Assembly (NCBI GenBank): GCA_030694465.1
Contig: JAUXYJ010000103.1
Span: 155,057-219,056 of the forward strand
Reading direction: 5' to 3'
Origin: Deltaproteobacteria bacterium
GTDB taxonomy: Bacteria; Myxococcota_A; Polyangia; Polyangiales; Ga0077539
DNA: 64,000 nucleotides
The translations under genes and the position numbers were made by a program. The notes beneath the pieces were generated by a model. The model ran no database searches and was not told the origin of the DNA. It saw only the letters and a list, made by a program, of their open reading frames with translations. Positions 6,272 to 21,827 of the stretch are shown here, one piece after another (position 1 is the stretch's first letter; each line of letters starts with the position of its first letter).

Positions 6272-9200
6272 CTAGCGCGCAGAACGACGACGGCGTCGCA
6301 GCGTGAGCACCATGGCGCCGAGCGCCCAGAGCCCCATCTCAGTGGCTCGCAGCGGCGTGCGGGTACGCGCTACACGACAGCCGCAACCACCGCCGCCGAC
6401 CTGCACAGGGCCGCCGTCTGCGCTGCCATCCATGCCTCCGTCAGAAATCGATCCGTCTGACAAAACGCTGCCATCCGTCAGTTCTCCTCCATCGCCAACG
6501 CCCGCGTCCGTCACGCGCGGGGCGCACACGATGGTCGGGCTTGAGCTCACGCGACGCTGCCCAAACGGCAGCGGCGTGCGCCAGTTGCCCGTGTTGCTGT
6601 TGTCATGCCGAAACGTGGGCCACTGCACGTTGCCATCGGTGCGGCCCTGCGTGTGCCACGCGTAGAGCCAGCCGTTGCGCGTGGGCACCACCATCTCGAG
6701 TGTGCCGTCGCCATCGAGGTCCCCGAGCGCGGGGGCTGCGATCAGCCACTGGCCTGTGAATTTAGGAAACCCCGGCGCTTGCACACCGCACGCATCGACG
6801 GCGTGAACATAGTAGCCACCTGTGCCGAGAATGACCTCGGGGTACGCGTCCCCCGAGACGTCAGCGACCACGGGATTGACCAAGAACGTGTAGTCCTCGA
6901 TCACCTTCGGAAAGCCCGCGAGGGGGTTGCCTTCGCGCGCGTTCCACGCGCCCACGAGGTGATTGAAGTAGCCGGCTTCGCCACCACTTGCGCCGTTGAG
7001 CAGGTTCGCGTTTGCACCCGAAGCGATGAAGGCCAGCTCCCCAGAGTTTTGCAAATCAGCGAACGTGGGCACACCAAACGCGGGGATAAATGGCGCACGC
7101 ATGCGGTCATCGCTGCGCGATCCGTAGGTGATGTTGTCCATCAAAGCCAAGCGGTTGATTGTCGAAGGCATGCGAGGCTGCACGTTGCGCTGTGTGGGGC
7201 GCACGACCATCAGATCTGGGTTGGCGTTGCCCACGACCGCGAGCTCATCAAGACCGTCTCCGTCGACGTCACCGATCGCCGGAGACATCATGATCCCGGT
7301 GCCCACGATCGGGAGAATATCCACCGAAGTCACAGGGATCGGCCAGCCCGAATGCACAGGTCCGCCCGCGTGTCGCGTGCCATCGCCGTGCACAACGAAG
7401 ATGGGCGAGATGTCTCCGCTGGTGTTCGCGATGCGCTCGTTGGTGACCACCACGAGGTCGGGGATCGCGTCGGCATCCATGCGCGCCACACCGACGCTGC
7501 CAAAGATACGATTTCGCTCGGTGCCAGGCTCCACCGTGTAGTGCATATCCACAGGAAATCCCGGGTGATTTGCAGCCGTAAGCGAGTCGATCGCGTAGAG
7601 GTTTCCGTCAAACGCGCCGAAGACAATCTCGGGACGGCCGTTGCCATCGAGGTCCACGATCACCGGCGACGCCGCGATGCCGCGATCGAGCACACGCGTG
7701 GGCGAAGTGTCCGCGCTCAGCACGTCCGGGAGTGTCCGCGGAAACCCGTGCCCATACGCGCTCCCGTCATGATTAAACACGTACACAGTGCCCGCGTAGC
7801 TCGTCACGATGATCTCTGGCTGGGGGTCATCGTCGATGTTCGCGATCGCCGGTGTACCCAGCACGGCTTCGCGCAAGGTCGCAGGATCGAGGCGCCCCGC
7901 GGTGCCCGCTTGGTAGCCAGGGCTCAACCGATAGTCCACCACGCGGCCGTTGACTTGCTGCACAGCATCGAAGCCACGCTGCACGCCCAAACGCGCCGGA
8001 AACCCTGGGATTTCTGAGCCATTTGCGCTCAACGCGTGGAGCAATCCGTCGCTCGTCGCCACGATCACTTCGCCGCGACCGTCTCCGTTGAGGTCCGCGA
8101 TCCTCGGCGAGCTCTCACCGCTGCCACGCAAATCCACCGGAAATCCCGGCAGCAACGTGCTGTCCCGGTGCACATAAAACGCCTTGCGAAACTCCCCACG
8201 GACGTCCCCAGCGCTGCCGCCGTAGTGCGCCACTGCGCGCACACGCACGGTGATCGTGAAGCGATTTTCGCGCTCACCTGCGTTGTCCACCATGAGCGTA
8301 GACACATCGAGCGTCGCGAGCGATCCATCCACAGGGGCGCTGACGTTGTTGCGTGTGACCAGCGTCTGCCATGCGCTGTCTGCGGGCTCAACCCCTCGCG
8401 CCCACTCCACAACGTAGTCGTAGTTGCTCGCACGGCGCGCGCTGATGTGTCCGTCGATCTGCAGCGTGGGCGTGCGATCGGGGTAGATCACGGTGAACCA
8501 TCGCGGGCTGGTCACGTCGACTTCGGGCGGGATTTTTCCGTCTCGAATCGCTTCGAGCATGTTGCGCGTGTTGGGCCGACCGTAGCCAAATCGTTGATCC
8601 CAGCCTGGCAGCGACGGGTAGTACCGTCGGTTAAACATCGGGTGCGACGCTTGCGATTCGGGGACGTTAATGTCGTCCACCGTGGTGACCATCAGCTGCC
8701 GCGCTTCTTCGGCGCTCAACGCCGGCGTGAGCCCGCGCTGTTGTGCGTACGAGTACACTAGGCCCGCGATCCCTGACGATTGCCCCACGGCTTCGGACGA
8801 GCACGCGTTGCCCGCGACGGACAACATGAGCTGCGCGCCGTAGTTCGTGCAGTTGTTAAACGCCAAAAAAGTGGTCGAGGTCTCAAGCGTCCGGTTGCCT
8901 CGCACCGCGTGCACATAGAGCACGTGGTTGGTCGTCCCGGGCATGTTGTGATGTCGGCTGTTTTCATCCGCGGCACTCGCCACGACGAGCACATTGTTGC
9001 GATACGCGTAGTCCACCGAGTCCATCGCGAACGCGCTGTTGTTAAGCGTCCCGAGAGCCTCTTGAATCACGCGGACCCTGCGATTTTGCCCGTAGTCTAG
9101 GTCCGTCGCGTACACCACGGCTTGGGCAAAGTTGTTCACGTCTGTGACAAACGAGTCGCCCACACGCATGGGGATGTATTGGCACTCGGGGCATGCGCCG

Positions 9201-9946
9201 ATGTTACCGATGCCGTCGTTGGCGGTCGCGGTGCTGTCGTTGGCCTCGCCTGTGCCATGCCCATAGCGCGTGTCGTCGTACGGGTCGTTGTCATCGTGCA
9301 TAAAATCCCAGCCGGAGATGTCATCGACGTGCCCATTGCGGTCGTCATCGACGCCGTCTGAGAACACACGGATCAAGTCTCCTGCGTCGAGGATCCCGTT
9401 GCGGTTAGGGTCGTTGTTTGCGCCCATCGCGTCGCGACACATGCCCACCGGATGAGGCAGCGCGGTCCCGCACGGCACGCGTGGGTCGTTGGCCCAATCG
9501 CGTACGTCAATGCGCCCGTTGCCGTCCGAGTCGTACATCGCAAACGAGGTGCCATCGGCGCGCTGTGGAAGCGGCGTTTCACCCAGGTTAATTGCAGCCT
9601 GAAACTGAATCGAGCGCTCGTCCCACTCGATCCCAGAGTCCAGCACGGCGATCAAGACTCTTGGGTCTCCAAGAGACAATCCCCACGCGCGGTCCACGTT
9701 GTTTCCTGCGCCGATCGCGGTCTCTTCAGTGCGAAACCCCGCAAGCGCTTGGTTGCGTGCGGGCATCCACGACCAGTGGTGATACTGACGCGGATAGTCG
9801 GGATCGTTGGGCCACTGCGTCGGATCTGCTGCTTGTTCTCGCGTCAAATTCGCTGGAAATGGCCAAGCCATCACGCCCATCGGCGTGATCACAAGTGCCG
9901 CCGCGGTCAACGCCGCGAGTCTTCGAGTGCGTGGGATTGCTTTCAT
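6272..9946 (-). CDS. secreted subtilisin-like S8 peptidase fused to FG-GAP/integrin-alpha-like repeats, with MYXO-CTERM sorting signal
   Basis: Signal peptide after ATG at 9946 (an alternative GTG lies at 9958). S8 motifs are present: Asp in VLDSGIEWD, His in YGHGTGEAN, Ser region GQSSGIAG. It has multiple D-x-D/N-G-D-G repeats (DLNGDGRGEVIVATSDG, DLDGNGRPEIVFGAFDGNLYAI, DVDGDGLDELAV). The C-terminus GCGC-RVARTRT…TM…RRRRRSAR matches MYXO-CTERM. Confidence 0.8.
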   Translation of the reverse strand: MKAIPRTRRLAALTAAALVITPMGVMAWPFPANLTREQAADPTQWPNDPDYPRQYHHWSWMPARNQALAGFRTEETAIGAGNNVDRAWGLSLGDPRVLIAVLDSGIEWDERSIQFQAAINLGETPLPQRADGTSFAMYDSDGNGRIDVRDWANDPRVPCGTALPHPVGMCRDAMGANNDPNRNGILDAGDLIRVFSDGVDDDRNGHVDDISGWDFMHDDNDPYDDTRYGHGTGEANDSTATANDGIGNIGACPECQYIPMRVGDSFVTDVNNFAQAVVYATDLDYGQNRRVRVIQEALGTLNNSAFAMDSVDYAYRNNVLVVASAADENSRHHNMPGTTNHVLYVHAVRGNRTLETSTTFLAFNNCTNYGAQLMLSVAGNACSSEAVGQSSGIAGLVYSYAQQRGLTPALSAEEARQLMVTTVDDINVPESQASHPMFNRRYYPSLPGWDQRFGYGRPNTRNMLEAIRDGKIPPEVDVTSPRWFTVIYPDRTPTLQIDGHISARRASNYDYVVEWARGVEPADSAWQTLVTRNNVSAPVDGSLATLDVSTLMVDNAGERENRFTITVRVRAVAHYGGSAGDVRGEFRKAFYVHRDSTLLPGFPVDLRGSGESSPRIADLNGDGRGEVIVATSDGLLHALSANGSEIPGFPARLGVQRGFDAVQQVNGRVVDYRLSPGYQAGTAGRLDPATLREAVLGTPAIANIDDDPQPEIIVTSYAGTVYVFNHDGSAYGHGFPRTLPDVLSADTSPTRVLDRGIAASPVIVDLDGNGRPEIVFGAFDGNLYAIDSLTAANHPGFPVDMHYTVEPGTERNRIFGSVGVARMDADAIPDLVVVTNERIANTSGDISPIFVVHGDGTRHAGGPVHSGWPIPVTSVDILPIVGTGIMMSPAIGDVDGDGLDELAVVGNANPDLMVVRPTQRNVQPRMPSTINRLALMDNITYGSRSDDRMRAPFIPAFGVPTFADLQNSGELAFIASGANANLLNGASGGEAGYFNHLVGAWNAREGNPLAGFPKVIEDYTFLVNPVVADVSGDAYPEVILGTGGYYVHAVDACGVQAPGFPKFTGQWLIAAPALGDLDGDGTLEMVVPTRNGWLYAWHTQGRTDGNVQWPTFRHDNSNTGNWRTPLPFGQRRVSSSPTIVCAPRVTDAGVGDGGELTDGSVLSDGSISDGGMDGSADGGPVQVGGGGCGCRVARTRTPLRATEMGLWALGAMVLTLRRRRRSAR

Positions 9947-10024
9947 CGGTGTTCTCACTTTGCGGGCCTGAGAGCCTACGGCACTCTACACATGGCGCGC
10001 TCGGCGATGTGTAGCGATGATCCG

Positions 10025-10423
10025 CTAGGGTGTATGCGACGCGAGACGCCACGCGTTTCCGATGCGCCGGATACACTGTTCGAGTGCAATTTCGCTCAGT
10101 GATTCTTGCTGAATCAACGGCAGCAGCGCACGCCAAGCCTCGGCCAACGTACGGACCGCTTCCGAGCGTCGCTGAAGACTCACCGGGAGCGAGCTCTCAC
10201 ATCGCCCCGCCCGCACCGCGAACCGCAAGCGATCTCGCACAATCTCTCGACGCAACGCCGCTTCAAAGCGCCGCTGCGCGTCACGCTCGCTGCCCACCGG
10301 GCCATCGTCTACCGCGCACGCAACAAGCGCACGGGCGGCCTCACGAGGGCGCTCAATGGGCTGCAATTCTGCAGGGCTACGCTGACATGCACACAACAGC
10401 ACCGCGAGCGCGACGGCCCTCAC
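10025..10423 (-). CDS. small hypothetical protein (possible secreted/lipoprotein)
   Basis: The GTG at 10423 overlaps the stop of the upstream gene (GTGA), suggesting translational coupling. The N-terminus is hydrophobic (AVALAVLLCAC). No known domain. Confidence 0.3.
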   Translation of the reverse strand: MRAVALAVLLCACQRSPAELQPIERPREAARALVACAVDDGPVGSERDAQRRFEAALRREIVRDRLRFAVRAGRCESSLPVSLQRRSEAVRTLAEAWRALLPLIQQESLSEIALEQCIRRIGNAWRLASHTP

Positions 10424-11808
10424 GGCCCCGCGTCCTCGGGGTGCATCACGCGCTCGGCGAGCTCGGGTCGACGCCCCATCGTGAGCCATCCCGCGAGCTC
10501 TTGTCGCTGAGCCTCTGCGTGTGCAACCACACTCCCCAACGCCGCGGACGCGAGGGCGGCGCGCAGGGGATCTCGGGAGTCTGCGCTCAGCCGTCGCGCG
10601 GCTTCAATGCCGGCCTCGGGGGCGACCGCGGCAGCCGTAGTCATAGCGATTCTGCAGGCCAACAGCGCATCGTCGGTCCACGACTCGCGCGCGTCGATTA
10701 ACGCATCGCAGGGTTGGCCCACGCCGCCGGTCTCAAACGCAAAGCTCGACGCGAGCGCTACGTCGCCCCACGCGCGGGCTCTGAGAAGGGCACGTCGGAC
10801 CGCGTTGCGCGCGAGGCCCGCGTTGCCTTGGGCCACGGCAGCACGCGCCTGCAGCATCAGCACGGCGGGGTCATCACCGCTCGCTGCGACCGCTGCCGCG
10901 AGGTCTTGTACGACGCCCTCGTGTACGCTCCCTCCGAGGCTCGCGCGCTGGAGCTGAGCCCGTGCCGCGAGGGGCACCGCGCCGTCGGGCCACGCGCGCA
11001 CAGCGCTGTCGACAAGGGCGAGCGCCGCAGCGCCATTCGATGCTGGATTTAGTGCGGCCGAAGCGTGCGCGGACTGCACCATCATCGCGCCCGAGATCGC
11101 CTCTGCAGTCATCGCGCGTGGCAGCGCATCGCTCACCGCGACGACGGTCCCATCGACGAGGTCAAGCGCGTGCCCCGCGACGACCACCACATAGCGCCCA
11201 AGCACGCCCGTCGGATCCGGCGGAACATCTCCACGCACGCTCCGCGTTCGCTGCGCAAACGTCACAGCGAGCCCTCGCGAGCGGCAGGCAACCGAGAGGG
11301 CGCGAGCGAGATCGAGCGACGAAAACCGCGCGCCCGCGGATGCAAGCGCGACCCCAAGCGCCTGCGTCTCACGCGAGGGTCCGACCTGGTCTGGGGTGAC
11401 AACGACGTGATGATTTGCAGTACGAATGCGTGACGCGAGCGCATCAAAGATCGCGCGAGCCCGTGCGAGAGAGCCGCTGGGAAGCGTCTGCGGGGCGAGG
11501 GCAGCGAGCGAGGGTGCCTCTGCGAGCGGCGCGGGCACATCGGCCACAGTGCTCGTGCGTCCCTCGTGTGAATCACGCGCGGTTGTGGCCGAGCGACTCG
11601 CGCGGAGCTTGGTCACGCTGAAGACAACCACCGCGGCCGCAGCGATGATCGCGAACGTGATCAGCACCCGCACGCGCTTCTCGCGCTTGCTCAACGGCGT
11701 GCGTTTGCTCTCGCGGACCTCCATAAGCCCGGTCGTTCGTAGGCACGCGGGACAGCGGATGGCCTCGTCGTCGGTCTGGGCTTGGCAATACGAACACTCA
11801 AGGGCCAT
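10420..11808 (-). CDS. zinc-ribbon / single-TM membrane protein with large Ala-rich extracytoplasmic domain
   Basis: N-terminal C-x2-C-x13-C-x2-C (CSYCQAQTDDEAIRCPAC), then a TM helix (VLITFAIIAAAAVVVFSV). There is a possible transglutaminase-like core (…ACRSRGLAVTF… GHALDLVDG), very tentative. Confidence 0.5.
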   Translation of the reverse strand: MALECSYCQAQTDDEAIRCPACLRTTGLMEVRESKRTPLSKREKRVRVLITFAIIAAAAVVVFSVTKLRASRSATTARDSHEGRTSTVADVPAPLAEAPSLAALAPQTLPSGSLARARAIFDALASRIRTANHHVVVTPDQVGPSRETQALGVALASAGARFSSLDLARALSVACRSRGLAVTFAQRTRSVRGDVPPDPTGVLGRYVVVVAGHALDLVDGTVVAVSDALPRAMTAEAISGAMMVQSAHASAALNPASNGAAALALVDSAVRAWPDGAVPLAARAQLQRASLGGSVHEGVVQDLAAAVAASGDDPAVLMLQARAAVAQGNAGLARNAVRRALLRARAWGDVALASSFAFETGGVGQPCDALIDARESWTDDALLACRIAMTTAAAVAPEAGIEAARRLSADSRDPLRAALASAALGSVVAHAEAQRQELAGWLTMGRRPELAERVMHPEDAGP

Positions 11809-11894: not shown

Positions 11895-13040
11895 ATGGCT
11901 ACTCTTCGATCGAGCGCACGCGCGAGGCTGCTCTTGGGGGCCACCCTGATGGTGGGCTGCAGCGCAAACCCGTCGATGGACGCGTCTATGCCCGACAGTG
12001 GCAACGCAGAGACCGGCAGCAGCCCCGAAGACGTGAGAGACACTGGGCCTGACGTCACCCCGGCGCGCTGCTCAATACGGCCAGCGCCCATGGCATTTCG
12101 GCGCAATTTACCGTCGATTCAGCCCACGGACGCGACGCTGCGGATGAATCATTTGCAGGCCAAAGCCACACACAACAGCTACCATCTGCGCCCCGCCGTC
12201 GACCTCCCCGAGTGGGACTACGAGCACGCCCCGCTCCGCACACAGCTCATGGAGCAAGGGGTCAGGAGCGTCGAGTTAGACATCCACTACGACAGCGCGT
12301 GCAGGCAATTTGCCGTCTATCACGTCGCATCCCTCGACGAGCGCACCACGTGCAGGACGCTCTTTGAGTGCCTCCTTGCGCTGCGAGATTTCTCACAAGC
12401 CAACCCGGGGCATCACCCGATCTTTGTGCACATCGAGCCCAAAGACCCGCCATTGCTCATGGATGGCACGAGGTTCACTGCGCTCGAGGGCGAGATCACC
12501 GCGGTGTTTTCGCGCGATTGGATCATCACGCCGGACGAAGTGCGCGGGGCCTCTGCGACATTGCGCGAGGCGATTTCGACCCGAGGATGGCCCTCGCTCG
12601 AGACCACGCGCGGTCGCATTCTGTTCTATCTCGACGACCGCGCCGCGCCCAGAGAGACCTACTCGTCCGGGGGGCAACATCTCAACGGCAGGCTCATGTT
12701 TGTCGACAGCGCGCCCACCGATCCGGTCGCAGCCATCGCTGTGCTCAATGACCCGATCGCCGACGCCGAAGCGATCACGCGTGCGCTCGCCGCGGGGATG
12801 ATCGTGCGCACACGCGCCGACTCGGATCCTGCCATGGCCCGTAGCAACGGTGCCCCTCGCCTTGCGCGCGCGTTGGCCTCGGGCGCACAGCTTGTGAGCA
12901 CTGATTTTCCTGCGATGACCATGGGTACAGACTACGTAGCAAACATCCCCGAGGGCACTCCCTCGCGCTGCTCACCGGTCACCGCACCCGCGATGTGCAC
13001 CCCTGGCATGATCGAAGACCCCGCGCGACTCGCCCGCTGA
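11895..13040 (+). CDS. lipoprotein, PLC-like phosphodiesterase (PI-PLC X-domain-like)
   Basis: Lipobox LMVGCSA. It contains an HNSYH motif and a DIHYD…FAVYHV TIM-barrel phosphodiesterase-like region. The assignment is from motif memory only. Confidence 0.55.
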   Translation: MATLRSSARARLLLGATLMVGCSANPSMDASMPDSGNAETGSSPEDVRDTGPDVTPARCSIRPAPMAFRRNLPSIQPTDATLRMNHLQAKATHNSYHLRPAVDLPEWDYEHAPLRTQLMEQGVRSVELDIHYDSACRQFAVYHVASLDERTTCRTLFECLLALRDFSQANPGHHPIFVHIEPKDPPLLMDGTRFTALEGEITAVFSRDWIITPDEVRGASATLREAISTRGWPSLETTRGRILFYLDDRAAPRETYSSGGQHLNGRLMFVDSAPTDPVAAIAVLNDPIADAEAITRALAAGMIVRTRADSDPAMARSNGAPRLARALASGAQLVSTDFPAMTMGTDYVANIPEGTPSRCSPVTAPAMCTPGMIEDPARLAR

Positions 13041-13090
13041 AATCGCAGCCTCGCTTGTGCCACGCGTGCGACGTCTCTTAGTATGTTCGC

Positions 13091-15415
13091 ATGTCGTCTC
13101 GCCCTGCACGGATCCCATGGGCCGCGTTTTTTTCAGGACAAACGCGAGCTCCCCGAGGGCTCTTGCTCTCGCTCGTGATGCTCTCTGCGGGCTGCGCTGC
13201 AGGCGAAGAGGGCGTGGGCCAGCAGGTCGAAGGCATCGCGATCGCGGGTCCGTGGGTGGCGCCCGCGACGACGCGCGACATCGCCCGCACACAGCGCGTC
13301 TCGGTGGTGGATCCACCCACGGTGGCGCCGGCGGGACGCTGCACATCGAGCAACCCGTTTGCGTGCTCGTGCACACACCCAGCGTGCACACCCGCGCACC
13401 CTGGGACCAACGATTTGCGTGCGTATTTGCTGCGTAGATTCACGCGCATTCGCAACGGTGGGTCATACTGTTGCAGACAAAACAGCGCTGCCTTGGGCTC
13501 TCTCTCGGTGCACGCGATCGGTCGCGCGATGGACCTGATGGTGCCCATGACCGGCGGCGACGCAGACAACACGATCGGCGATGAGGTGGCCAACTGGCTC
13601 GTCGAGAACGCGAACTTCATCGGGATTCAGCGCGTCGTCTGGGATCGCGCATACTGGAACGGCGAGCGAGGTTTCGGGCTCTTGAGCTCTTCGTCGCTGC
13701 CCCACACCGACCACCTCCACGTTGAGCTAAGCATCGCGGGTGGGGCACGGCAGACTCCGTTCTTTACCTCGGGCGCCTCGATGGGCTCGGGCACATGCAC
13801 ACCACGCTGCAACGGCACCGATCTTATCGCAGCCAACTGCACCATCACACACTGCGGACTCGTCGGCGCGCCGTGTCTCGCGGGCCCTCCGCCTTCATGC
13901 GGAACCCCGCCTCCCCCAGAGCCCCCCGAGGCGGTCTTGGTCCCCGGCGCAGCGCTCCCCGCGGTCGCGCGATTGGGCGCAGTGGGTCGCGTCCGTTGGC
14001 TCACACCCCAGCGCATGTTTGACACGCGCACCGCTGCCGAGAGCACGCGCTTGACCCGCGGAGGCGGCGCAACGAGCGGCCCCGTCCTCGCAGCTCAAGG
14101 GGCGGTCTATCGCAACTGGACCGGCGCTGGTTTGCCCGCGGACGCGAGCACCGTGTGGATAAACAACACCGCGGTGCCCAGCACCCTGGGCGGGTTCTTG
14201 TCCGTCATCGGCACGGGACAAGCGCGCCCCGAGACCTCGAATCTTAACTGGGCTCCCATGCGCGTGGCTGCCAACGCCGCGGTGGTTTCGCTTGGAGATT
14301 CACAGGGAATCTCTTTCGCTCCCAACACAGACGTCGAGCTCATCAGCGATGTGTACGCCGCGTTTGCTCCCACCGGAGACAACCTCACCGCAGCGGGCCC
14401 CCTCCGTGTGTACGACACACGGTCCGCGTCGATGCCGCTGCTACCCAATACGCCACGCGCCATCGATGTCCGCGCACCCGCGACAGCCACGGGCGTCATC
14501 GCCAACATCGCCGTCATCGCTGGCGCCGCCGACGGGTTTGTCGTGCTTTATCCCTGCGGAATGCCCGTCCCTGGCACAAGCTCCGTGAACTTCACCGCGC
14601 AACGTGTTGTGTCCAACAGCGTGATGGTGCAGCTCGGGACCGATCGGCAAATCTGCGCACGCTCGACCTCCGAAGTGGGGCTCATCGTGGACGTCTCGGG
14701 CTACCTCTCGCCCACTGGGCTGTCCGCGTATCAGCCGCTGCGCCCCGTGCGAATGCTTGACACGCGCTCGGGGACGACCCGCTATCGCAACCGCCTCGCG
14801 GCGCGACAGACTCTTGAACTTCCCATCCAGAGCATGCCCGGAATGCCTGCCAATGTGCACGCCGTGGTCGCCAACATCACCGCGGTCAACACCGCGGACA
14901 ACGGGTTTGTCACTGCGTATCCATGCGGCGGAGGCGCGACGGCCCCAGGCACCTCGTCGCTCAATTACGGCGCGAGCGACGTCGTCAGTGGGCTCGTCGT
15001 CTCGCCAGTTACCAACGGATCACTCTGCCTCTTCTCTTTGGTCCGCACCGATCTGATTGTGGATTTGCAGGGTGTCTGGACCGGCGCAATGCCCGCGCCT
15101 CCCACCATGATGATGATGGGCGAAGACCCCGGAGATCCTCCCGATCTCAGCAATGATGGCGGCCTCGACGATGCCTCTGGGCCCACGCCCATGGACGCTG
15201 CGGGCGCAGACACGGGCACTGCCGAAGACGCATCAAGCCCTCCATTGCGAGACGCCTCGCCCGACGCTCGCCGCGGAAGCGAGCCCCTCGAAGCGCCCTC
15301 TGGCTGTGGCTGCCGCACAGTGAATCACGCGGGCGATCGATCGTGCTCGCTCTTGGCCTTCGGCGCGTTTGCCACGCTGATGGCAGCCCAACGACGCCGG
15401 CGACGTACGCACTAG
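13091..15415 (+). CDS. secreted LAS-superfamily (peptidase M15-like) metallopeptidase-domain protein with three ~110-aa YPCG repeats and MYXO-CTERM
   Basis: Signal peptide. SVHAIGRAMDL fits the S-x-H-x2-G-x-A-x-D zinc-ligand motif of VanY/M15 peptidases, and HTDHLHVEL provides a further His pair. There are three tandem repeats containing V..DTR…ANI(A/T)…GF(V/L)..YPCG…TSS.N(F/Y)…LIVD..GY. The C-terminus GCGC-RTVNHAGDRSCS…TM…RRRRRTH is MYXO-CTERM. Confidence 0.7.
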   Translation: MSSRPARIPWAAFFSGQTRAPRGLLLSLVMLSAGCAAGEEGVGQQVEGIAIAGPWVAPATTRDIARTQRVSVVDPPTVAPAGRCTSSNPFACSCTHPACTPAHPGTNDLRAYLLRRFTRIRNGGSYCCRQNSAALGSLSVHAIGRAMDLMVPMTGGDADNTIGDEVANWLVENANFIGIQRVVWDRAYWNGERGFGLLSSSSLPHTDHLHVELSIAGGARQTPFFTSGASMGSGTCTPRCNGTDLIAANCTITHCGLVGAPCLAGPPPSCGTPPPPEPPEAVLVPGAALPAVARLGAVGRVRWLTPQRMFDTRTAAESTRLTRGGGATSGPVLAAQGAVYRNWTGAGLPADASTVWINNTAVPSTLGGFLSVIGTGQARPETSNLNWAPMRVAANAAVVSLGDSQGISFAPNTDVELISDVYAAFAPTGDNLTAAGPLRVYDTRSASMPLLPNTPRAIDVRAPATATGVIANIAVIAGAADGFVVLYPCGMPVPGTSSVNFTAQRVVSNSVMVQLGTDRQICARSTSEVGLIVDVSGYLSPTGLSAYQPLRPVRMLDTRSGTTRYRNRLAARQTLELPIQSMPGMPANVHAVVANITAVNTADNGFVTAYPCGGGATAPGTSSLNYGASDVVSGLVVSPVTNGSLCLFSLVRTDLIVDLQGVWTGAMPAPPTMMMMGEDPGDPPDLSNDGGLDDASGPTPMDAAGADTGTAEDASSPPLRDASPDARRGSEPLEAPSGCGCRTVNHAGDRSCSLLAFGAFATLMAAQRRRRRTH

Positions 15416-15531
15416 ATCGCGCTTTGCGTGGTCTCGGCAGAGACTCTGATCGCGCGGAGTTCAGCGATTAGAGCGCGTGGACACACTACAACCACGAAGT
15501 TTCTGCGCGTCTGTGTCATGGTGGCGACGTC

Positions 15532-16020
15532 ATGGACGACGACGCACGCAACGAGACGATCCGCCGCGGACTCAGCACGCATGTGCCTGAAATCGCGCAA
15601 GGTATCGTGGTCATTCACAAGATTGTCTCTGGACAAAATCGCAGCAAAATCGCTGTCCGATCGACCAAGCCCACGGTGGATCCGGTCAAGACGTGCGCTG
15701 CCCATGGCGCCGCGGCGATCCACGCTCTCCAGCAGCAGCTCGGTTGCACGATGGACCTCGTCGCCTGGGGTGCCAACTGGTCCGACAACATCCGCAGCTC
15801 ACTTCTTCCGCTCAAATGCACAGGGATTGACCCCGGCGAGTTCGAAGGAGACCCAGTGAAAATCGAGGGGCCCTACATGCAATACGACGAGGGCCACCAG
15901 CTCAGCGAGCGTGAAGCGATGGTCGCGACCATCTTGTCCCTCGCGCGCACACTCACCGGCGAAGAGCTGATCTTCTCGACTCCCGTGCGGTGGCTCCTCG
16001 CGCCTGCCCCAAGAGGCTGA
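15532..16020 (+). CDS. hypothetical protein
   Basis: 162-aa ORF in a locally lower-GC (~55%) stretch. No recognisable domain. A competing antisense ORF (15412..15723) is less plausible. Confidence 0.3.
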   Translation: MDDDARNETIRRGLSTHVPEIAQGIVVIHKIVSGQNRSKIAVRSTKPTVDPVKTCAAHGAAAIHALQQQLGCTMDLVAWGANWSDNIRSSLLPLKCTGIDPGEFEGDPVKIEGPYMQYDEGHQLSEREAMVATILSLARTLTGEELIFSTPVRWLLAPAPRG

Positions 16021-16087
16021 GCGCAATGAGCTCGTACGCTCGCTTTTTTCTCTGCATTTTTGCGCTCTAACCGCGGTCTCGCCTGCA

Positions 16088-18427
16088 GTGTCGTCCCACG
16101 CGCTACCCTCTACGCCGACCTCGTTGGCAGCCCCCCGCAGCCAGCGCCCCTGCCCTGTGTGTCGCGCCCCGGTAGACGTCCTCCGCGCACCCTACGTCGC
16201 GCATCGCGCCGGACACTTTGCCTATTATTGCTCGTTCGCTTGTTTTGAGCAGCGTGCGGACGTGGAGGGATCTCTTCGCGGCTCGACGGCCACAAGCGAT
16301 CCGCTCGCGCGGCCACAGCGCGAGCCCGAGGACCTCGTCGAAGAGCCCCTGGTCCCTGATGATTTGCAGCTCGAAGCACCGAGCCCTGTCGTCGAAGACA
16401 GCGCGCCGTTGCTGTCACAGCCGCTCCCCGTGCTTGTGTCTTTTGTGGGCGAGCCCACGCTCGATGAGCTGCGGATCATGCTCGGAATTCGCAGCGTCGT
16501 AGAGTCGCAGAGCGAAGGCCCCGCGCAGATCCCTGATCTCGTCGAGCGCCGCGCCGAGCCGCTGATCCTCGCGCCCATCACGTGGGTCCCCCTCGGGGCC
16601 GCGGCACTTTGCACGGCGATCACGCTGATCGCGATGCTTAGTTCGTCCGGGATTTCGCTAGCATTTTCGTCAATCGCCGCGCTCGGCGCCCTCACGATCG
16701 CGGGCCGCACGCTCTGGAGTCTGCGCGTGCTGGCACATCCCTTGTGGTGGAGCACTCCCTTCGCCGCCTCGCTGCTCATGATCGCGCGCGCGTCGAGTGT
16801 TCACAGCGCTGGAACATCGCTGGCGCTCGCAGCCCTCTGCGCGAGCGTCTTGCCCCTGCGCGCGTGGTTTGTGCATCGCACAATGCACAGCGCGTTGGGG
16901 GCGCTCGATGCCCAGCAGCGATGGCTTCCGCTGACTGCACGCGTGATCCGCGGCGCCGCGTCTGAGCCGACGATCCTAGAGAGCAAGCAGGTCCGTGCAG
17001 GCGAAGAGGTTCTTGTCGACGCAGGCGAGCGCGTCCCGACCGATGGCGTTGTGCGCGAAGGCGAAGCGACCCTTGAGACGGGCTCTCACGCACGCACCGT
17101 GAGCGTCGGCCATTCGGTCCTCGCCGGAGCGTATGTGCGCACGGGCTCACTGCAATTGCTCGCGACGCGCGCGGGCGAAGACGCAGCCATCATGCGCGCG
17201 CGGGCCATTTTTGATGGGCGCGAAGAGCGTGGTGCGCTCCCGGCGACAGCGCGGAGCCTGCCCACCCTCGCGGTCATAACCGTGGCAATGGCCACCGCGA
17301 TCGCGCTCTTTGTGGCACCGCAAGACCCTCTGGCCACCTTGGCGCTCACGCTCGTCGCGCTGCCCTTGGGGCCACTGCGTGTGCTCTCTCGCGCCCCGTG
17401 GATGCACGCCGCAGCGCAATCTCTCTCGCGCGGAACGGTCTTTCGCGACCTCCCAGCCCTCACCCTCGCCTCGCGCGTCGGGATGCTCGTGCTCTCGGTC
17501 CGCGCCACGCTCACACGCGGAGTGTTCGAGCTGTGCGAGATCGTCTCGATGGGTCATTGGACCGAGAAAGAGCTCCTCGCCCTCGCCGCGGGCGCAGAGC
17601 AACAAGCCCCCGAGCACCCCATCGCGACGGCGATCCTTGACGCCGCGCGGGCCAGACAATTGCGGCCTGATCCTGTGCGCAGACCCATCCCGATGCCAGG
17701 CAAGGGCATCGTGGCGGCGACGTCGCTGGGTGCGCCTCTCGTGGTGGGCTCCCGTGCGCTCTTGATCGCAGAGGGCATCGCGGTGGCGCCAGGCGAAGAG
17801 CTCGCGCGCGCGATCGAAGCCCACGGGCGGCACGCGGTGTTTATCGCGGTGAGCGGTCGCCTCGAGGGGATCTTAGGTCTCGAAGATCGTCCACGTGAAG
17901 ACGCACGAAACACTGTCCAAACGCTGATAGATGCGGGCCTCGCGGTCGCCCTCGTCGGCGGAGAGAGCGCGAACACACTCGACGCCCTGGCCCTCTCGCT
18001 CGACGTCGCGCAGGTCCGCGCCGAGGTGAGTCCCGAGGACCGCCCCGCACAAATTCGCGCATTGGGAGAGCTCTCCGGCTACGTCGCCGTCGCAGGGCAT
18101 CCCGCGCTCGATGACCTCGCGCTCGGCGCCGCCGATGTCTCAATCGGGCTCGCCTCCGCAGGTGGGACCGGCGCAGAGTGCACCATCGCGCTCTCAGGCG
18201 ACGCGCTCCGAGACGCCTCCGACGCGCTCTTGCTCGCGCGGCGTGCACGCAAAGCCAGCCAGTCCATGCTCTGGACCCTGATGATCTCGGGTGTCTTCGG
18301 AGCCCTCGGCCGCACGCTAGGGTTCTCGCTCGCCATCGCCACACTCCTCGCGCTCGTCGTGCCCACCGTGGGCCTGTGGCTGGCCGGAAGATACACACTG
18401 CAAGATCAACCGAGTGAAGGCACCTGA
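16088..18427 (+). CDS. P1B-type (heavy-metal) ATPase homologue with degenerate catalytic motifs and N-terminal TRASH-like Cys motif
   Basis: N-terminal CPVC-x19-C-x3-C metal-binding-like motif. Topology and the conserved HP motif (PEHPIATAIL, cf. SEHPLA) match CopA-like pumps. The other catalytic motifs are degenerate: DKTGTLT is replaced by SVRATLTRG (no phosphorylatable Asp), TM6 CPC by LPL, GDGINDAPAL by AGHPALDDLAL, and TGES by ETGS. GTG start at 16088. Confidence 0.7.
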   Translation: MSSHALPSTPTSLAAPRSQRPCPVCRAPVDVLRAPYVAHRAGHFAYYCSFACFEQRADVEGSLRGSTATSDPLARPQREPEDLVEEPLVPDDLQLEAPSPVVEDSAPLLSQPLPVLVSFVGEPTLDELRIMLGIRSVVESQSEGPAQIPDLVERRAEPLILAPITWVPLGAAALCTAITLIAMLSSSGISLAFSSIAALGALTIAGRTLWSLRVLAHPLWWSTPFAASLLMIARASSVHSAGTSLALAALCASVLPLRAWFVHRTMHSALGALDAQQRWLPLTARVIRGAASEPTILESKQVRAGEEVLVDAGERVPTDGVVREGEATLETGSHARTVSVGHSVLAGAYVRTGSLQLLATRAGEDAAIMRARAIFDGREERGALPATARSLPTLAVITVAMATAIALFVAPQDPLATLALTLVALPLGPLRVLSRAPWMHAAAQSLSRGTVFRDLPALTLASRVGMLVLSVRATLTRGVFELCEIVSMGHWTEKELLALAAGAEQQAPEHPIATAILDAARARQLRPDPVRRPIPMPGKGIVAATSLGAPLVVGSRALLIAEGIAVAPGEELARAIEAHGRHAVFIAVSGRLEGILGLEDRPREDARNTVQTLIDAGLAVALVGGESANTLDALALSLDVAQVRAEVSPEDRPAQIRALGELSGYVAVAGHPALDDLALGAADVSIGLASAGGTGAECTIALSGDALRDASDALLLARRARKASQSMLWTLMISGVFGALGRTLGFSLAIATLLALVVPTVGLWLAGRYTLQDQPSEGT

Positions 18428-18476
18428 GGGCTGCTTAGGGTCGCAGCGATCGATTGGTGCTATACTTCGCCGCGTT

Positions 18477-19034
18477 ATGCTCGACGACGTTCTTCAGGAC
18501 CTGCAATCTTCAATTCACAAAGCCCACGAGTCACTGCGCACGCAGCTTGGGCGCCTTCGCACCGGGCGCGCGACCGCGTCGATGCTTGATTCGGTTCGCG
18601 TGGACTATTACGGCACGCCAACACCGATCAGCCAAATGGCCAACGTCCAGGTGCCCGAGCCGCGCTTAATCACGGTCAAAGCGTGGGAAAAAAACCAGGG
18701 CAAAGCGATCGACAAGGCCATCCGTGAGTCGGGCCTTGGGCTCAACCCACAGCTCGACGGTGACCTCGTCCGGATCCCCATCCCCGCGCTCACCGAAGAG
18801 CGCCGCAAAGACCTCGCCAAGCAAGCGCGCAAGGTCGGCGAAGAGTGCAAGATCGCCGTGCGTGAGGCGCGCCGCAACGCCAAAGAGCTCGTTGACACGC
18901 TTGTCAAGGACGGCGATGTCGGCGAAGACGAAGGCGAGCTCGCCTGGAAAAAGGCTGAAGAGCTCGTCGTGCACGGCAACAAGCAGGTCGACGAGATCGT
19001 CGCCGGCAAAGAGAAAGACATCATGACCGTGTGA
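18477..19034 (+). CDS. frr: ribosome recycling factor
   Basis: Full-length RRF-like sequence (MLDDVLQDLQ…RTGRA..SMLD.V.VDYYGT.TPI.Q.A.V.VPE.R…EIVAGKEKDIM). Confidence 0.95.
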   Translation: MLDDVLQDLQSSIHKAHESLRTQLGRLRTGRATASMLDSVRVDYYGTPTPISQMANVQVPEPRLITVKAWEKNQGKAIDKAIRESGLGLNPQLDGDLVRIPIPALTEERRKDLAKQARKVGEECKIAVREARRNAKELVDTLVKDGDVGEDEGELAWKKAEELVVHGNKQVDEIVAGKEKDIMTV

Positions 19035-19072
19035 AGTGCCTTGAGGACATCACACGGTGATAGCTTCTCTGT

Positions 19073-20290
19073 GTGGCGTCCTTCTCTGCAGCAACACGTG
19101 AGCTCGTCCTTAAGCTCGTCTATTACGGTCCTGGCCTTGGCGGCAAGACGACCTCTCTCAAAGCGCTGCACGCGGCCGTGCGGCCCGAGCACCGCGGGCG
19201 CATGATCTCGCTCGCGACTCCGGTCGATCGCACGCTGTACTTTGACTTCTTGCCGCTGCGCTTGCCCAGCATCGGCGACGTGCAGCTGCGCTTGCAGCTC
19301 TTTACCGTCCCGGGCCAAGTGTACTTTAACGCCACACGCAAGCTCGTCCTCACGGGCGCTGACGGCGTGATCTTTGTCGCAGACTCACAGCGCGCGCGGT
19401 CCGAGGCAAACACCGAAGCGCTAGACAATTTGCGGGACAATCTCCGCGAGCTCAACCGAAACTTCGACGAGCTCCCGTTGGTGTTTTCGTACAACAAGCG
19501 CGACCTGGACGACGTGTTTGACATGGCGCAGCTCGACCAAGCGCTCAACCCCCGCAAGGTGCCCTCGTTTGCTACGTCGGCGACCCGCGGCGAGGGCGTG
19601 TTTGAGCCCCTGGATGCCGTCGTGCGCGAGGCCCTCGCGGATCTCGTGCGTCGCAAGACCCTCCCGCCCGATGTCCTCTTGCCCCAAGACCGCACCGTGG
19701 CCGAGCGGCTCGCGAGCGTCCAGGCAGAGGTCCCCAGCCGCAGCGTAGAGCCTGCCCAGGTCGTCGCTGGGGCAGCGCCACGGACGCCTCCGCCGGTGCC
19801 CATCCCAAGCGAAATCGAGGCCGCGCTGAGCCAAGCTACCGAGACCGTCGAGCGCCTGGTGTCCCCAGGCCAGAGAGCGCATGAGCCTCGCAACACGGTC
19901 ACGATGCCCGCGCTTCAGGTGGGGCCCACGAGCGATCGCAACCGGCGCTCGCTCACGCTGTCCTCGCTGTTTGACACAGACGAGCAAGAGGCTGTCAGGA
20001 CCATCGAAGACGCGCTCGACGAGGGGCTGCATCCACGTGCACTTTTGCTGCTCGAAGCGCTGTTGGTGAGGGTCTTAGATCGCAGCGCACGGATGGTCGG
20101 GCGCACCGAGGGGCACCACGAGGCGACCGCGTGGATGCTCGGGATTTCGCCCGAGCGCTACGCACGCACACGCACCGCCGCACAGCGCGCGCGACGCGGA
20201 ACCGCGGCCACACGACGCGAGGCTCTCGAGGCCTACGTGCTCGCGTGCAGCGCGCAGATCGCCGTCGCCGCGATGAGCGAGCGTGGCTAA
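19073..20290 (+). CDS. MglA-family Ras-like GTPase with ~210-aa C-terminal extension
   Basis: The N-terminal 195 aa are nearly collinear with M. xanthus MglA: LKLVYYGPGLGGKTTSL (P-loop), ISLATPVDRTLYFDFLPL (Arg-finger region conserved), TVPGQVY (catalytic Gln conserved), NKRD. GTG start 38 nt after frr. The extension is Pro/Ala-rich and then helical, with no known domain. Confidence 0.85.
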   Translation: MASFSAATRELVLKLVYYGPGLGGKTTSLKALHAAVRPEHRGRMISLATPVDRTLYFDFLPLRLPSIGDVQLRLQLFTVPGQVYFNATRKLVLTGADGVIFVADSQRARSEANTEALDNLRDNLRELNRNFDELPLVFSYNKRDLDDVFDMAQLDQALNPRKVPSFATSATRGEGVFEPLDAVVREALADLVRRKTLPPDVLLPQDRTVAERLASVQAEVPSRSVEPAQVVAGAAPRTPPPVPIPSEIEAALSQATETVERLVSPGQRAHEPRNTVTMPALQVGPTSDRNRRSLTLSSLFDTDEQEAVRTIEDALDEGLHPRALLLLEALLVRVLDRSARMVGRTEGHHEATAWMLGISPERYARTRTAAQRARRGTAATRREALEAYVLACSAQIAVAAMSERG

Positions 20291-20315
20291 CTCTGTCTGA
20301 AATATTGCAGCACTG

Positions 20316-20846
20316 ATGACACACCCGGCGATCGTATTGCTCCGCGCCATCAACCTCGGATCGCACCACAAGCTCCCCATGGCGCAGCTCGTCGCGCTGC
20401 TTGAGCAAGCCCAGTGCACCGAAGTGCAAACGTACATCCAGAGCGGCAATGTCATCCTGCGCTCGAAACTCCAGGGCGACGCGCTGCGCAAGCACCTTGA
20501 GTCACAGCTGCTCGCAAAGCTCGGCGTTGAGATCCCAGTGGTGGTGTGCTCTCTCGATCACTGGCACACGCTCGCCGCGCGATGTCCTTTTGAGCAGGAC
20601 AATCCCACGCATTTGCATGTGATGTTCTTTGCCCAACCGCTGGCCCCTGTGCCCCTCCTCGAGCCTCTGCGCTATGCGCCCGAGCGCTTCGCCATCGATC
20701 AGCGCGAGATCTTTTTGCACCTCCCCAAGGGCATGGGCGTGTCCAAGCTCGCCCCCGTCATCTCGCGCAAATACCCCGAGGGGACCGCTCGCAACTGGCG
20801 GACGGTCCTCGCGCTCACCGCCCTCGCTGAGAAGCTTACAGCGTAA
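20316..20846 (+). CDS. DUF1697 family protein
   Basis: N-terminus VLLRAINLGSHHKLPMAQLVALLE…VQTYIQSGNVIL matches the DUF1697 signature (LLRGINVGG.NK..MAEL…V.TYIQSGNV.F). Confidence 0.75.
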   Translation: MTHPAIVLLRAINLGSHHKLPMAQLVALLEQAQCTEVQTYIQSGNVILRSKLQGDALRKHLESQLLAKLGVEIPVVVCSLDHWHTLAARCPFEQDNPTHLHVMFFAQPLAPVPLLEPLRYAPERFAIDQREIFLHLPKGMGVSKLAPVISRKYPEGTARNWRTVLALTALAEKLTA

Positions 20847-20849
20847 GTC

Positions 20850-21827
20850 TTAGGCCCCAGGCTCGCGCAGCAAGAAGGGCATCGCCACATCGAGAAAGCG
20901 CTCGGTCGCATCGACGTGTGCAAAGTGGGATGCCTCGTCGAGCCAGACGAGCTCGCTGTCGGGCAAGAGCGCATGCAATCGCGCGCCGACGGACGGGGGC
21001 ACCATGGGATCTCTTCGCGCGTACACGAGCTGCAGCGGTAGTGGGCTCTCTCCGAGGGCTCTCAGGGCACGCTCAAACCGCCGCATCGCGCGGACATCGA
21101 GCGTGTCTTCGAGCGCGCGAGCAAACGCGCTGAAGCCCGACGCGGTCGAGAGCGGGTGACCGTAGACCCTGTGTTCTTCCTGGGATTTGAGCGATTCGTC
21201 GTAGTAGTGCACGTTGCGATGGACCCACTTGAGCGGGTCTCGCTGGACGATGGCGCGTAGCGCACGCTCCCAGATTGGGACGCTCTTGAGCGCACAGCGC
21301 AGCGCGACCATCCGCGCCGTCGCGAGACCCGGCGAGTGGAGGTTGACCAAACGCGAGAACACACTGCGATCTTGCAGCGCGAGATGCATGCAGAGGTAGC
21401 CGCCCATGGAGTTTCCGATGGCGGCACAGCCTCGGAGAGAGAGCGCGGTCACGAAGGCCCCGAGGGTCTCAGCGACGGCCTCGGGCGGATAGCGACGCGC
21501 GGGCTTGTCGCTCTCACCGCAGCCCACAAGATCTGGAATATACACTGTAAATTCGCTAGCCAACTGCGCGACTGCGTAGCGCCACGAGTACCCCGTCGTC
21601 ATGAGCCCATGGACAAGCAACAGGGGCGGCCCCGAGCCCGTCACGCGATAGCGCATCGCGAACGATCCAAACCAGTCGGTGTGCACGCGCACCGAGCGCG
21701 CCGTAAGCGAAAACCACGGGTGGGGCACACGCGGCCGTGCGGGCACATCGGCGTACGCGAGCTGCTCAAAAGGGCGGAGAGACACCCTCGCGAGGGTAGA
21801 GCCTTCGGGCGCGCGATGGGCCTGCAA
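20850..21827 (-). CDS. alpha/beta-fold hydrolase
   Basis: LLLVHGLMTTGYSWR oxyanion region. GNSMGG nucleophile elbow. C-terminal Asp/His region. Confidence 0.8.
   Translation of the reverse strand: MQAHRAPEGSTLARVSLRPFEQLAYADVPARPRVPHPWFSLTARSVRVHTDWFGSFAMRYRVTGSGPPLLLVHGLMTTGYSWRYAVAQLASEFTVYIPDLVGCGESDKPARRYPPEAVAETLGAFVTALSLRGCAAIGNSMGGYLCMHLALQDRSVFSRLVNLHSPGLATARMVALRCALKSVPIWERALRAIVQRDPLKWVHRNVHYYDESLKSQEEHRVYGHPLSTASGFSAFARALEDTLDVRAMRRFERALRALGESPLPLQLVYARRDPMVPPSVGARLHALLPDSELVWLDEASHFAHVDATERFLDVAMPFLLREPGA

Follow-up and report, generated by a model that had tools for sequence, protein, structure and literature searches.

A clade of P1B-type ATPase homologs in Myxococcota, lacking the catalytic residues of the pumps and maintained by purifying selection

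Background

The P-type ATPase family is usually defined by its phosphorylated aspartate. A stretch of 64,000 nucleotides from a Deltaproteobacteria bacterium of the order Polyangiales (GenBank assembly GCA_030694465.1, contig JAUXYJ010000103.1, positions 155,057 to 219,056; hereafter, the window) carries a gene for a homolog of the heavy-metal (P1B-type) pumps of this family in which that aspartate is missing. The locus raises the question of whether the gene is a pump gene in decay, a pump that works by another chemistry, or a protein kept for a purpose other than transport.

An earlier reading of the letters alone (the sequence-only reading) had favored a conserved pseudo-ATPase over a recent pseudogene, and had proposed as checks a profile alignment, a search for relatives with the same substitutions, and an analysis of the ratio of nonsynonymous to synonymous substitution rates (dN/dS). 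We carried out these analyses and compared the protein with known systems. We conclude, with a probability of about 0.7, that the protein is a membrane-anchored, non-catalytic pseudo-pump under selection, acting through the binding of a ligand or a partner. That it is a selected, non-catalytic pump homolog is, taken by itself, very probable; that it is specifically a ligand-binding sensor or regulator is doubtful, and we put this forward tentatively.

Loss of the catalytic motifs in the window protein

The gene (Table 1) is an unbroken open reading frame (ORF) of 779 codons on the forward strand with a GTG start, so the sequence-only reading was right about the intact frame; the GC content of the surrounding DNA is 65-67%. 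The protein passed the cut-offs of the Pfam profile E1-E2_ATPase (residues 281-427; 44.3 bits against 28.1) and of the generic NCBIfam profile TIGR01494 (64 against 62.3 bits), fell narrowly below that of the Pfam profile Hydrolase (HAD; 25.8 against 26.4 bits), and failed the curated cut-offs of TIGR01525 (heavy-metal P-type ATPase; E = 1.7e-53, 182 bits against 346) and TIGR01511 (116 bits against 397). Scans of the curated hidden Markov models (HMMs) of NCBIfam and Pfam gave no specific family for the protein. The top match in the PDB, found with phmmer, was CopA of Archaeoglobus fulgidus (7r0g, E = 2.5e-37, residues 257-735).

The register of each motif was taken, residue by residue, from agreeing HMMER and MAFFT alignments. 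The phosphorylation site DKTGTLT is replaced by S470-VRATLT, which has no phosphorylatable Asp; the TGE dephosphorylation loop reads T331-G-S, without the Glu; and GDGINDAPAL is replaced by G670-HPALDDLAL, in which the second Asp (D675) alone is retained. The sequence-only reading had given the same replacements as SVRATLTRG, ETGS (for TGES), and AGHPALDDLAL, and the alignments bear it out on all three, as well as on the retained HP motif, which it had quoted as PEHPIATAIL (PEHPIA, residues 508-513). Its replacement of CPC by LPL stood in part. The position of CPC falls in L425-PLGPL, where the partner of CPC is GPL in the HMMER alignment and PLG in the MAFFT alignment; the register is ambiguous by 2-3 residues, and LPL is off by up to 3, while the absence of any Cys, His, or Met from the segment 414-436 agrees with the claimed loss. 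By these alignments, the losses go beyond those reported earlier: the conserved Lys of the phosphorylation (P) domain is replaced by R652, TGD by GGE (residues 624-626), and the 'YN' of helix M5 by 'IS', and the 'MxxSS' of helix M6 is missing. No canonical DKTGT or CPC occurs elsewhere in the window protein, in which the only Cys residues outside the N-terminal finger described below are at positions 175, 251, 483, and 698. The profile and structure alignments together show that the motifs are properly registered and lost.

The retained features lie mainly in the nucleotide-binding (N) domain. Besides the HP motif, the protein keeps the GxG motif (PGKGI, residues 537-541) and the whole adenine-pocket set (E504, H510-P511, G538-x-G540, and G554). 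In the actuator (A) domain, the Asp of PxDG (Asp319) is retained.

A canonical aspartyl phosphate, catalytic Mg2+ coordination, and a Post-Albers cycle are predicted to be impossible, because the phosphorylated Asp, the Mg2+-binding Asp of GDG, the Glu of TGE, and the intramembrane metal ligands are all absent. Because most of the defining features tested fail, the protein should not be classed as a functional P1B ATPase. The loss of all catalytic motifs and a score far under the curated P1B threshold are also what might be seen in a recently inactivated copper-pump gene, decaying with its frame still open. The evidence from the relatives and from substitution rates, given below, makes this explanation extremely improbable.

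Predicted fold

A model was built with AlphaFold2 (AF2) from a family alignment of 49 sequences. It had a mean predicted local distance difference test score (pLDDT) of 85.6 and a predicted template modeling score (pTM) of 0.77, and in it the N domain splits the P domain, with an A domain and eight long membrane helices also present. A small beta-rich N-terminal finger (residues 19-66) was tethered to this core by a disordered linker. The closest structure found with Foldseek was again A. fulgidus CopA (7r0g), in the E1 state, with a TM-score of 0.73, and the TM-scores against E2-state structures were 0.44-0.47. Since a high-confidence model was obtained from family covariation, the window protein is predicted to be folded, which argues against a decaying gene.

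A separate clade in Myxococcota

A word-index search returned an identical metagenomic copy of the window protein (P0001) and two relatives (P0002 and P0003, 35% and 32% identical), both of which share the losses and the Cys4 motif of the window protein; the rest of the matches were canonical pumps. A word-index search with a 49-sequence profile added no further relatives. HMMER, run exhaustively against 1.84 billion representatives of clusters at 50% identity, found at least 150 clusters (P0001 and 149 others), with frames intact over about 700-800 amino acids (aa). Among the matches listed, scores fell smoothly from 1099 to 271 bits; canonical pumps reached about 220 bits against a similar profile, below all 150 listed matches. 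The named members came only from metagenome-assembled genomes (MAGs) labeled Myxococcales, Polyangiales, Deltaproteobacteria, or Proteobacteria, and the nearest relative of the window protein in a genome was 47% identical to it. In the source databases, the members were labeled 'Cu+-exporting ATPase', 'cation-translocating P-type ATPase', or 'HAD family hydrolase'.

We aligned 149 clusters, the window protein, P0002, and P0003 (152 family sequences) together with five canonical pumps. CPC, TGE, YN, and MxxSS were found in none of the 152, and an Asp stood at the phosphorylation site in a single sequence, so the relatives share the substitutions that the sequence-only reading had described. The position of this Asp was occupied by Cys in 101 sequences, Ser in 11, Ala in 11, and Arg in 10. 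The Thr of DKT was replaced by Arg in 105 and by His in 18 of the 152; the Glu of TGE by Ala in 98; the Lys of the P domain by Arg in 137; and the first Asp of GDG by Arg in 55 and by His in 46. Elsewhere in the same motifs the pump residues persisted: the Gly and Thr of DKTGT in 137 and 121 of the 152, the second Asp of GDG in 138, the S/T-G-D/E equivalent of TGD in most of the family, and the Asp of PxDG (D319) in 144 of 145. In the N domain, E504 was present in 120, H510 in 94, G538 in 145, and G540 in 148 of 152, and G554 in 149 of 149. The whole quintet (E504, H510, G538, G540, and G554) was kept by the window protein and by 77 of the 152 members. R556, which follows G554 and is variable in canonical pumps, was invariant (149/149), and R531, R603, R607, Q611, D615, and E577 were 89-99% conserved in the family and unconserved in canonical pumps. 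The replacements are recurrent and not random, because the same changes return (Asp to Cys, Thr to Arg or His, Lys to Arg, and Asp to Arg or His) and the N domain has gained an invariant Arg. A basic cleft has taken the place of the acidic, Mg2+-binding catalytic cleft of the pumps.

The family stood apart from the canonical pumps both in a tree and by HMM. In a neighbor-joining tree, one long branch (0.32) separated 137 full-length members from 102 canonical P1B sequences. With one HMM built from each set, the preference of family members for their own model was never below 186 bits, and that of the canonical pumps for theirs never below 227 bits. When the window protein was left out of the family HMM, it still scored 578 bits on that model, against 213 bits on the canonical P1B HMM. 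It carries the family signature at R472, R652, H671, R556, C22/C25/C48/C52, and D30-V-L-R-A, and departs from it in having Ser for Cys at the Asp position and Ala at G473. Among the sampled pumps, no canonical subgroup was specifically closer to the family. On this sequence evidence, the family appears to be a large, old, monophyletic clade of P1B-type ATPase homologs in Myxococcota.

The frequent Cys at the Asp position, and the Ser there in a minority that includes the window protein, could mean that the proteins are active pumps or phosphatases with an unconventional nucleophile and a phosphocysteine or phosphoserine intermediate; the retention of the following Gly-Thr, of S/T-G-D/E, and of the second Asp of GDGxND would fit this as well. 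However, no nucleophile is universal, because the position is held by Ala, Arg, Leu, Thr, Gly, or Pro in about one-fourth of the members. Moreover, the Mg2+ ligands are changed to Arg or His, the Glu required for dephosphorylation is absent, no intramembrane ligand for any metal is present, the membrane helices are the least conserved part of the protein, and Cys at position 470 does not tightly co-vary with His at position 671. We consider catalysis of this kind very unlikely.

A cryptic metal site in the P domain, formed by Cys470, His671, and Asp675, was also considered and was rejected; it is not family-wide, and the co-occurrence of Cys and His is weak (37/101 versus 9/51).

Selection and conservation by domain

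The related loci (L numbers below) were collected with an alignment of three sequences and are biased toward the sub-clade of the window. By the Nei-Gojobori method, the two ortholog pairs with unsaturated dS gave dN/dS values of 0.215 (L005/L006, dS 0.57) and 0.167 (L010/L012, dS 0.42); the flanking genes frr, argF, and argD gave 0.06-0.07. The pseudo-ATPase is under purifying selection that is somewhat relaxed. These values, the losses shared by at least 150 clusters with intact frames, and the conservation of the replaced positions themselves (Arg for the Thr of DKT, Arg for Lys, and R556) are at odds with decay, and the preference of the sequence-only reading for a conserved pseudo-ATPase stands.

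Conservation was unevenly distributed. The mean frequency of the top residue was 0.55-0.61 in the P domain, 0.54 in the N domain, 0.53 in the Cys4 finger, 0.47 in the A domain, and 0.34-0.39 in the transmembrane helices. The cytosolic domains are the most and the membrane helices the least conserved, the opposite of what would be expected of an ion-binding transporter; the main targets of selection are the Cys4 finger and the cytosolic domains, not the membrane helices.

The N-terminal Cys4 finger

The sequence-only reading had described an N-terminal motif C-x2-C-x19-C-x3-C and called it TRASH-like. The four Cys are there, and the middle spacing is x22, not x19. This spacing lies within the TRASH range of x19-22, and 'YYCSFAC' fits the F/Y-C-S core. 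In the family the consensus is CxxCGxxVDPLRA...FxYFCSxxC, and among the members with the N-terminus present the four Cys were conserved in 112/113, 114/116, 125/125, and 114/126 (with His in 11 more at the last). The D-P-L-R-A between the Cys residues is specific to the family and reads D30-V-L-R-A in the window copy.

When 40 finger segments of the family were scanned singly, DUF7576 was matched by 35 (best E-value 3e-7), zf-FCS by 19, TRASH_HVO_1752_C by 19, Arc_trans_TRASH by 4, and YHS by 4, all with scores near the gathering thresholds or under them. When the segments were combined into a profile, it matched ribosomal protein eL24, which has the TRASH fold, in the PDB (E = 0.007). The window's own segment, scanned alone, was too divergent to match any profile. 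The label 'TRASH-like' is borne out, at the level of the superfamily, by these family segments. A single TRASH domain makes up L24e, in which four Cys bind a metal, and Cu-ATPases too can carry YHS/TRASH domains (PMC4626032).

Automated start calls systematically shorten this N-terminal domain in the myxobacterial family. The public call for the window's own protein (P0001, 756 aa) starts at GTG codon 24 (window 16088-16160; L004, 3670), between the first two Cys of the motif, and cuts the motif. The public call for P0003 (665 aa) lacks the whole finger, which is included in a longer ORF (L003:4255-6444).

In the linker that follows, the motif P-[ST]-L-[DE]-x-x-x-x-M-L-G-[LI], to which the short predicted helix PTLDELRIMLGI of the window protein belongs, was found in 8 of the 152 family members, all from the sub-clade of the window. 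This helix may be a short linear interaction motif.

How a pump without catalysis might act

In the mechanism that we propose, the membrane part would serve as an anchor and the cytosolic head as a non-hydrolyzing binding module. The Arg-rich cleft between the N and P domains may bind an anionic ligand without turnover: a nucleotide, another phosphorylated metabolite, or an acidic partner protein. A nucleotide is a candidate because the window copy and half of the family keep the whole adenine-pocket set. The TRASH finger would hold a structural or sensed metal ion (Zn or Cu), and the protein would act as a sensor, regulator, or scaffold in the inner membrane instead of as a transporter.

Several points weigh against this proposal. 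ATP binding cannot be universal, because the full quintet is present in only about half of the family. The dN/dS of the pseudo-ATPase is about three times that of its housekeeping neighbors. Compared with the family consensus, the window copy has degenerated further (Ser for Cys, Ala473 for Gly, and GGE for SGD). All of the identified members come from metagenomes and MAGs, and among the loci compared no partner gene is conserved across the clades.

The incompleteness of the nucleotide pocket in half of the family would also suit a protein that binds no small ligand and serves purely as a scaffold or an anchor in the membrane, or as a pseudo-subunit that regulates a canonical P-type pump, its finger being structural or part of an interface. 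The conserved surface Arg residues (R33, R531, R556, R603, R607, and R652) could form a protein interface, and the 'DPLRA' motif of the finger is family-specific. On the other hand, such a partner is not found as a conserved neighboring gene, and the GxG and VG motifs of the adenine pocket are nearly invariant, beyond what fold maintenance usually requires, although this is a weak argument. We regard a scaffold without a ligand as improbable.

At the other extreme, the clade would be the first natural case in which the P-type ATPase fold has become a receptor: the Arg/His/Cys pocket would bind a phosphorylated metabolite or nucleotide unhydrolyzed, the finger would read a metal, and E1/E2-like movements would carry the signal at the membrane. 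The ligand in such a receptor may be ATP, a second messenger, or an acyl-phosphate (for instance, carbamoyl phosphate). We think it rather unlikely that all of this holds. Our preferred reading is the more general one, of a selected pseudo-pump that binds a ligand or a partner.

Features of the locus and gene context

The features of the window protein and of the gene that follows it are listed in Table 1.

Table 1. Coordinates of the pseudo-P1B-ATPase gene, its predicted domains and motifs, and the adjacent frr gene in the window
Feature	Position (nt)	Strand	Remarks
Pseudo-P1B-ATPase coding sequence	16088..18427	+	779 aa; start GTG 16088, possibly TTG 16124
Cys4 TRASH/zf-FCS-type zinc ribbon (putative)	16151..16243	+	C22-x2-C25-x22-C48-x3-C52; contains (V)D(P)LRA; pLDDT 88-94
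Disordered Pro/Glu-rich linker	16256..16552	+	pLDDT <50 at residues 66-120 and 138-157
Short predicted helix PTLDELRIMLGI in linker	16454-16489	+	aa 123-134; AF2 helix 125-131
Transmembrane helices MA, MB, M1, M2	16553..16882	+	Hydropathy; AF2 helices 163-182, 188-214, 218-237, 241-277; family conservation 0.34
Actuator (A) domain	16925..17212	+	Pfam E1-E2_ATPase match; T331-G-S at nt 17078-17086
Helices M3-M4	17249..17395	+	CPC equivalent L425-PLGPL at nt 17360-17377; AF2 helix kink at 424-427
Phosphorylation-loop remnant S470-V-R-A-T-L-T	17495..17515	+	Replaces DKTGTLT
Nucleotide-binding (N) domain	17543..17887	+	pLDDT ~97; PEHPIA at nt 17609-17626
N-domain site G538-x-G540	17696-17710	+	
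N-domain site VGSR (R556)	17744-17755	+	
P domain, second half	17954..18124	+	G-G-E aa 624-626; R652 at nt 18041-18043
P-domain hinge G670-HPALDDLAL	18092-18124	+	Replaces GDGxNDxPAL
Helices M5-M6	18245..18397	+	AF2 helices 707-740, 748-771; conservation 0.39
frr (ribosome recycling factor)	18477..19034	+	Pfam RRF 2.6e-58; 49 bp 3' of pseudo-ATPase

A terminator scan found no terminator-like site in the 49-bp gap between the pseudo-ATPase gene and frr, and frr also lies 3' of the ortholog in other loci of the window's clade (L005, L006, L007, and L013). Different neighbors were seen in the other clades. In the largest (L017, L010-L012, and L018-L022), the pseudo-ATPase lies directly 3' of argD or argD-argF, with an 8-bp overlap between the argF stop and the pseudo-ATPase start in L017 (5893-11002), and a Fur-family gene or a Ser/Thr kinase-TPR pair often comes next. 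In the third (L003, 4255-9212, and L008), the pseudo-ATPase lies directly 5' of argH-lysA. The recurring position in arginine gene clusters may reflect an old insertion site or a function.

The presence of the gene within arginine clusters in two of the three clades could indicate a sensor of arginine biosynthesis, whose remodeled pocket binds carbamoyl phosphate or a related acyl-phosphate and reports the status of the pathway. The P domains of P-type ATPases can accept small acyl-phosphates. However, the window's own clade has frr instead of nearby arg genes, and an ancient insertion into a conserved arg cluster could explain the arrangement. We consider such a sensor highly improbable, and retain the reading of a pseudo-pump that binds a ligand or a partner.

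No Rfam element was found in 13000-21000. No promoter-like site was found, and the sole hairpin upstream of the gene, at 16027-16042, is within chance expectation. This weak hairpin, with a T-run, follows a 162-aa ORF with a NusA-like KH domain (15532-16020, +; Pfam KH_5, 1.5e-7; partial match to TIGR01953, NusA, 2.6e-11) that lies immediately upstream of the pseudo-ATPase gene. The small upstream ORFs of the window (the KH-domain ORF) and of L001 (149 aa) were considered as counterparts and proved not to be homologous.

Large secreted proteins with cell-wall domains are encoded just 5' of the pseudo-ATPase in three distant loci: in the window (13091-15415, +; weak Extensin-like_C match), in L001 (4615-7389, -; Extensin-like_C), and in L003 (652-2568 and 2701-4197; YkuD domain). 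Those of L001 and L003 are 50% identical, and that of the window is related to them at the domain level only. Farther upstream in the window are a protein resembling Ca2+-dependent PI-PLC (11895-13040, +; Pfam PI-PLC-C1, 7.7e-74) and a 1228-aa subtilase with FG-GAP repeats (6272-9958, -). Both genes are absent from L006 and L013, where a conserved 462-aa protein (10420-11808, -, in the window) abuts the pseudo-ATPase. Thus, the segment at about 11.9-16.0 kb looks like a genome-specific insertion.

Downstream, directly 3' of frr, the window encodes a 405-aa paralog of MglA, a GTPase of gliding motility (19073-20290, +; phmmer E = 3.6e-54 to Myxococcus xanthus MglA over residues 5-191), with an extra C-terminal extension of about 210 aa that has no family match. 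An MglA paralog so close by is in keeping with Myxococcota. This gene is not beside frr in L005, L006, L007, or L013.

Comparison with known systems

The family resembles the P1B-1 Cu(I) ATPases (CopA of A. fulgidus and Legionella pneumophila, and human ATP7A/B) in its fold, with MA, MB, M1-M6, and the order of the A, P, and N domains, and it has in common with them three N-domain motifs (HP, GxG, and VG), PxDG in the A domain, and the Asp that comes second in GDGxND. Unlike these pumps, it has no phosphorylatable Asp, TGE Glu, CPC, YN, or MxxSS; Arg or His stands in place of the Lys of the P domain and of the first Asp of GDG; conservation of the membrane helices is low; and the HMA (MxCxxC) domain is absent. 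The family is descended from CopA pumps of the P1B-1 type but would work unlike them.

Cu-ATPases with an N-terminal YHS/TRASH domain (P0014, P0015, and P0072; PF04945) likewise have a Cys-rich finger of the TRASH superfamily before the P1B core, and they were among the best-scoring canonical pumps on the family profile. Unlike the family, however, they keep CPC and DKTGT ('IACPCAL' in P0014 and P0015), and their distance to the family (1.88, versus 1.83-1.90 for other pumps) does not make them specifically closer.

Two uncharacterized families of P-type ATPase homologs, FUPA27 and FUPA32 of TCDB, have been reported for M. xanthus (PMC3924187). For neither has a loss of the catalytic Asp been described, and FUPA27 is a copper-insertion pump. 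FUPA32 was tried as the family described here and was rejected; it is a different, widely distributed family, because MXAN_4270 matches a protein of the archaeon Methanobrevibacter smithii at 1e-90. Our searches of the literature, including the text of a 2023 review of the open questions of the field in the Journal of Biological Chemistry, turned up no account of a catalytically dead P1B clade. At the family level the finding is solid, and to specialists it is mildly surprising.

That a large clade, lineage-wide and under selection, has kept the machine without its chemistry would mean that the P-type fold has a second use, other than transport, and its members could serve as natural 'frozen' variants for the study of domain coupling. 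Counts of metal-resistance genes in Myxococcota and in soil and sediment metagenomes are probably inflated, because the members are labeled as working pumps; a simple sequence signature could flag the genes for such pseudo-pumps in annotation.

For the proposed function, parallels are found outside the pumps. The YHS domain is a copper sensor in an adenylyl cyclase, and in the YHS adenylyl cyclase of Mycobacterium phlei and the archaeal TRASH regulators CopR/CopT a metal-sensing TRASH/YHS input is joined to an output that is not transport (PMC4626032). The output domain of the myxobacterial proteins differs from theirs, and metal sensing by the myxobacterial finger is putative. In the guanylate cyclases of apicomplexans (ATPaseP-GC of Toxoplasma gondii), a P-type ATPase fold likewise serves as a regulatory or sensing module and not as a stand-alone pump. 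These proteins are eukaryotic, of the P4 (flippase-like) type, and fused to cyclase domains, and they have no evolutionary link to the bacterial, P1B-derived clade. By analogy, the TRASH/YHS sensor modules and the P-type-ATPase-like domains of the apicomplexan cyclases appear to be the closest functional counterparts of the myxobacterial pseudo-pumps.

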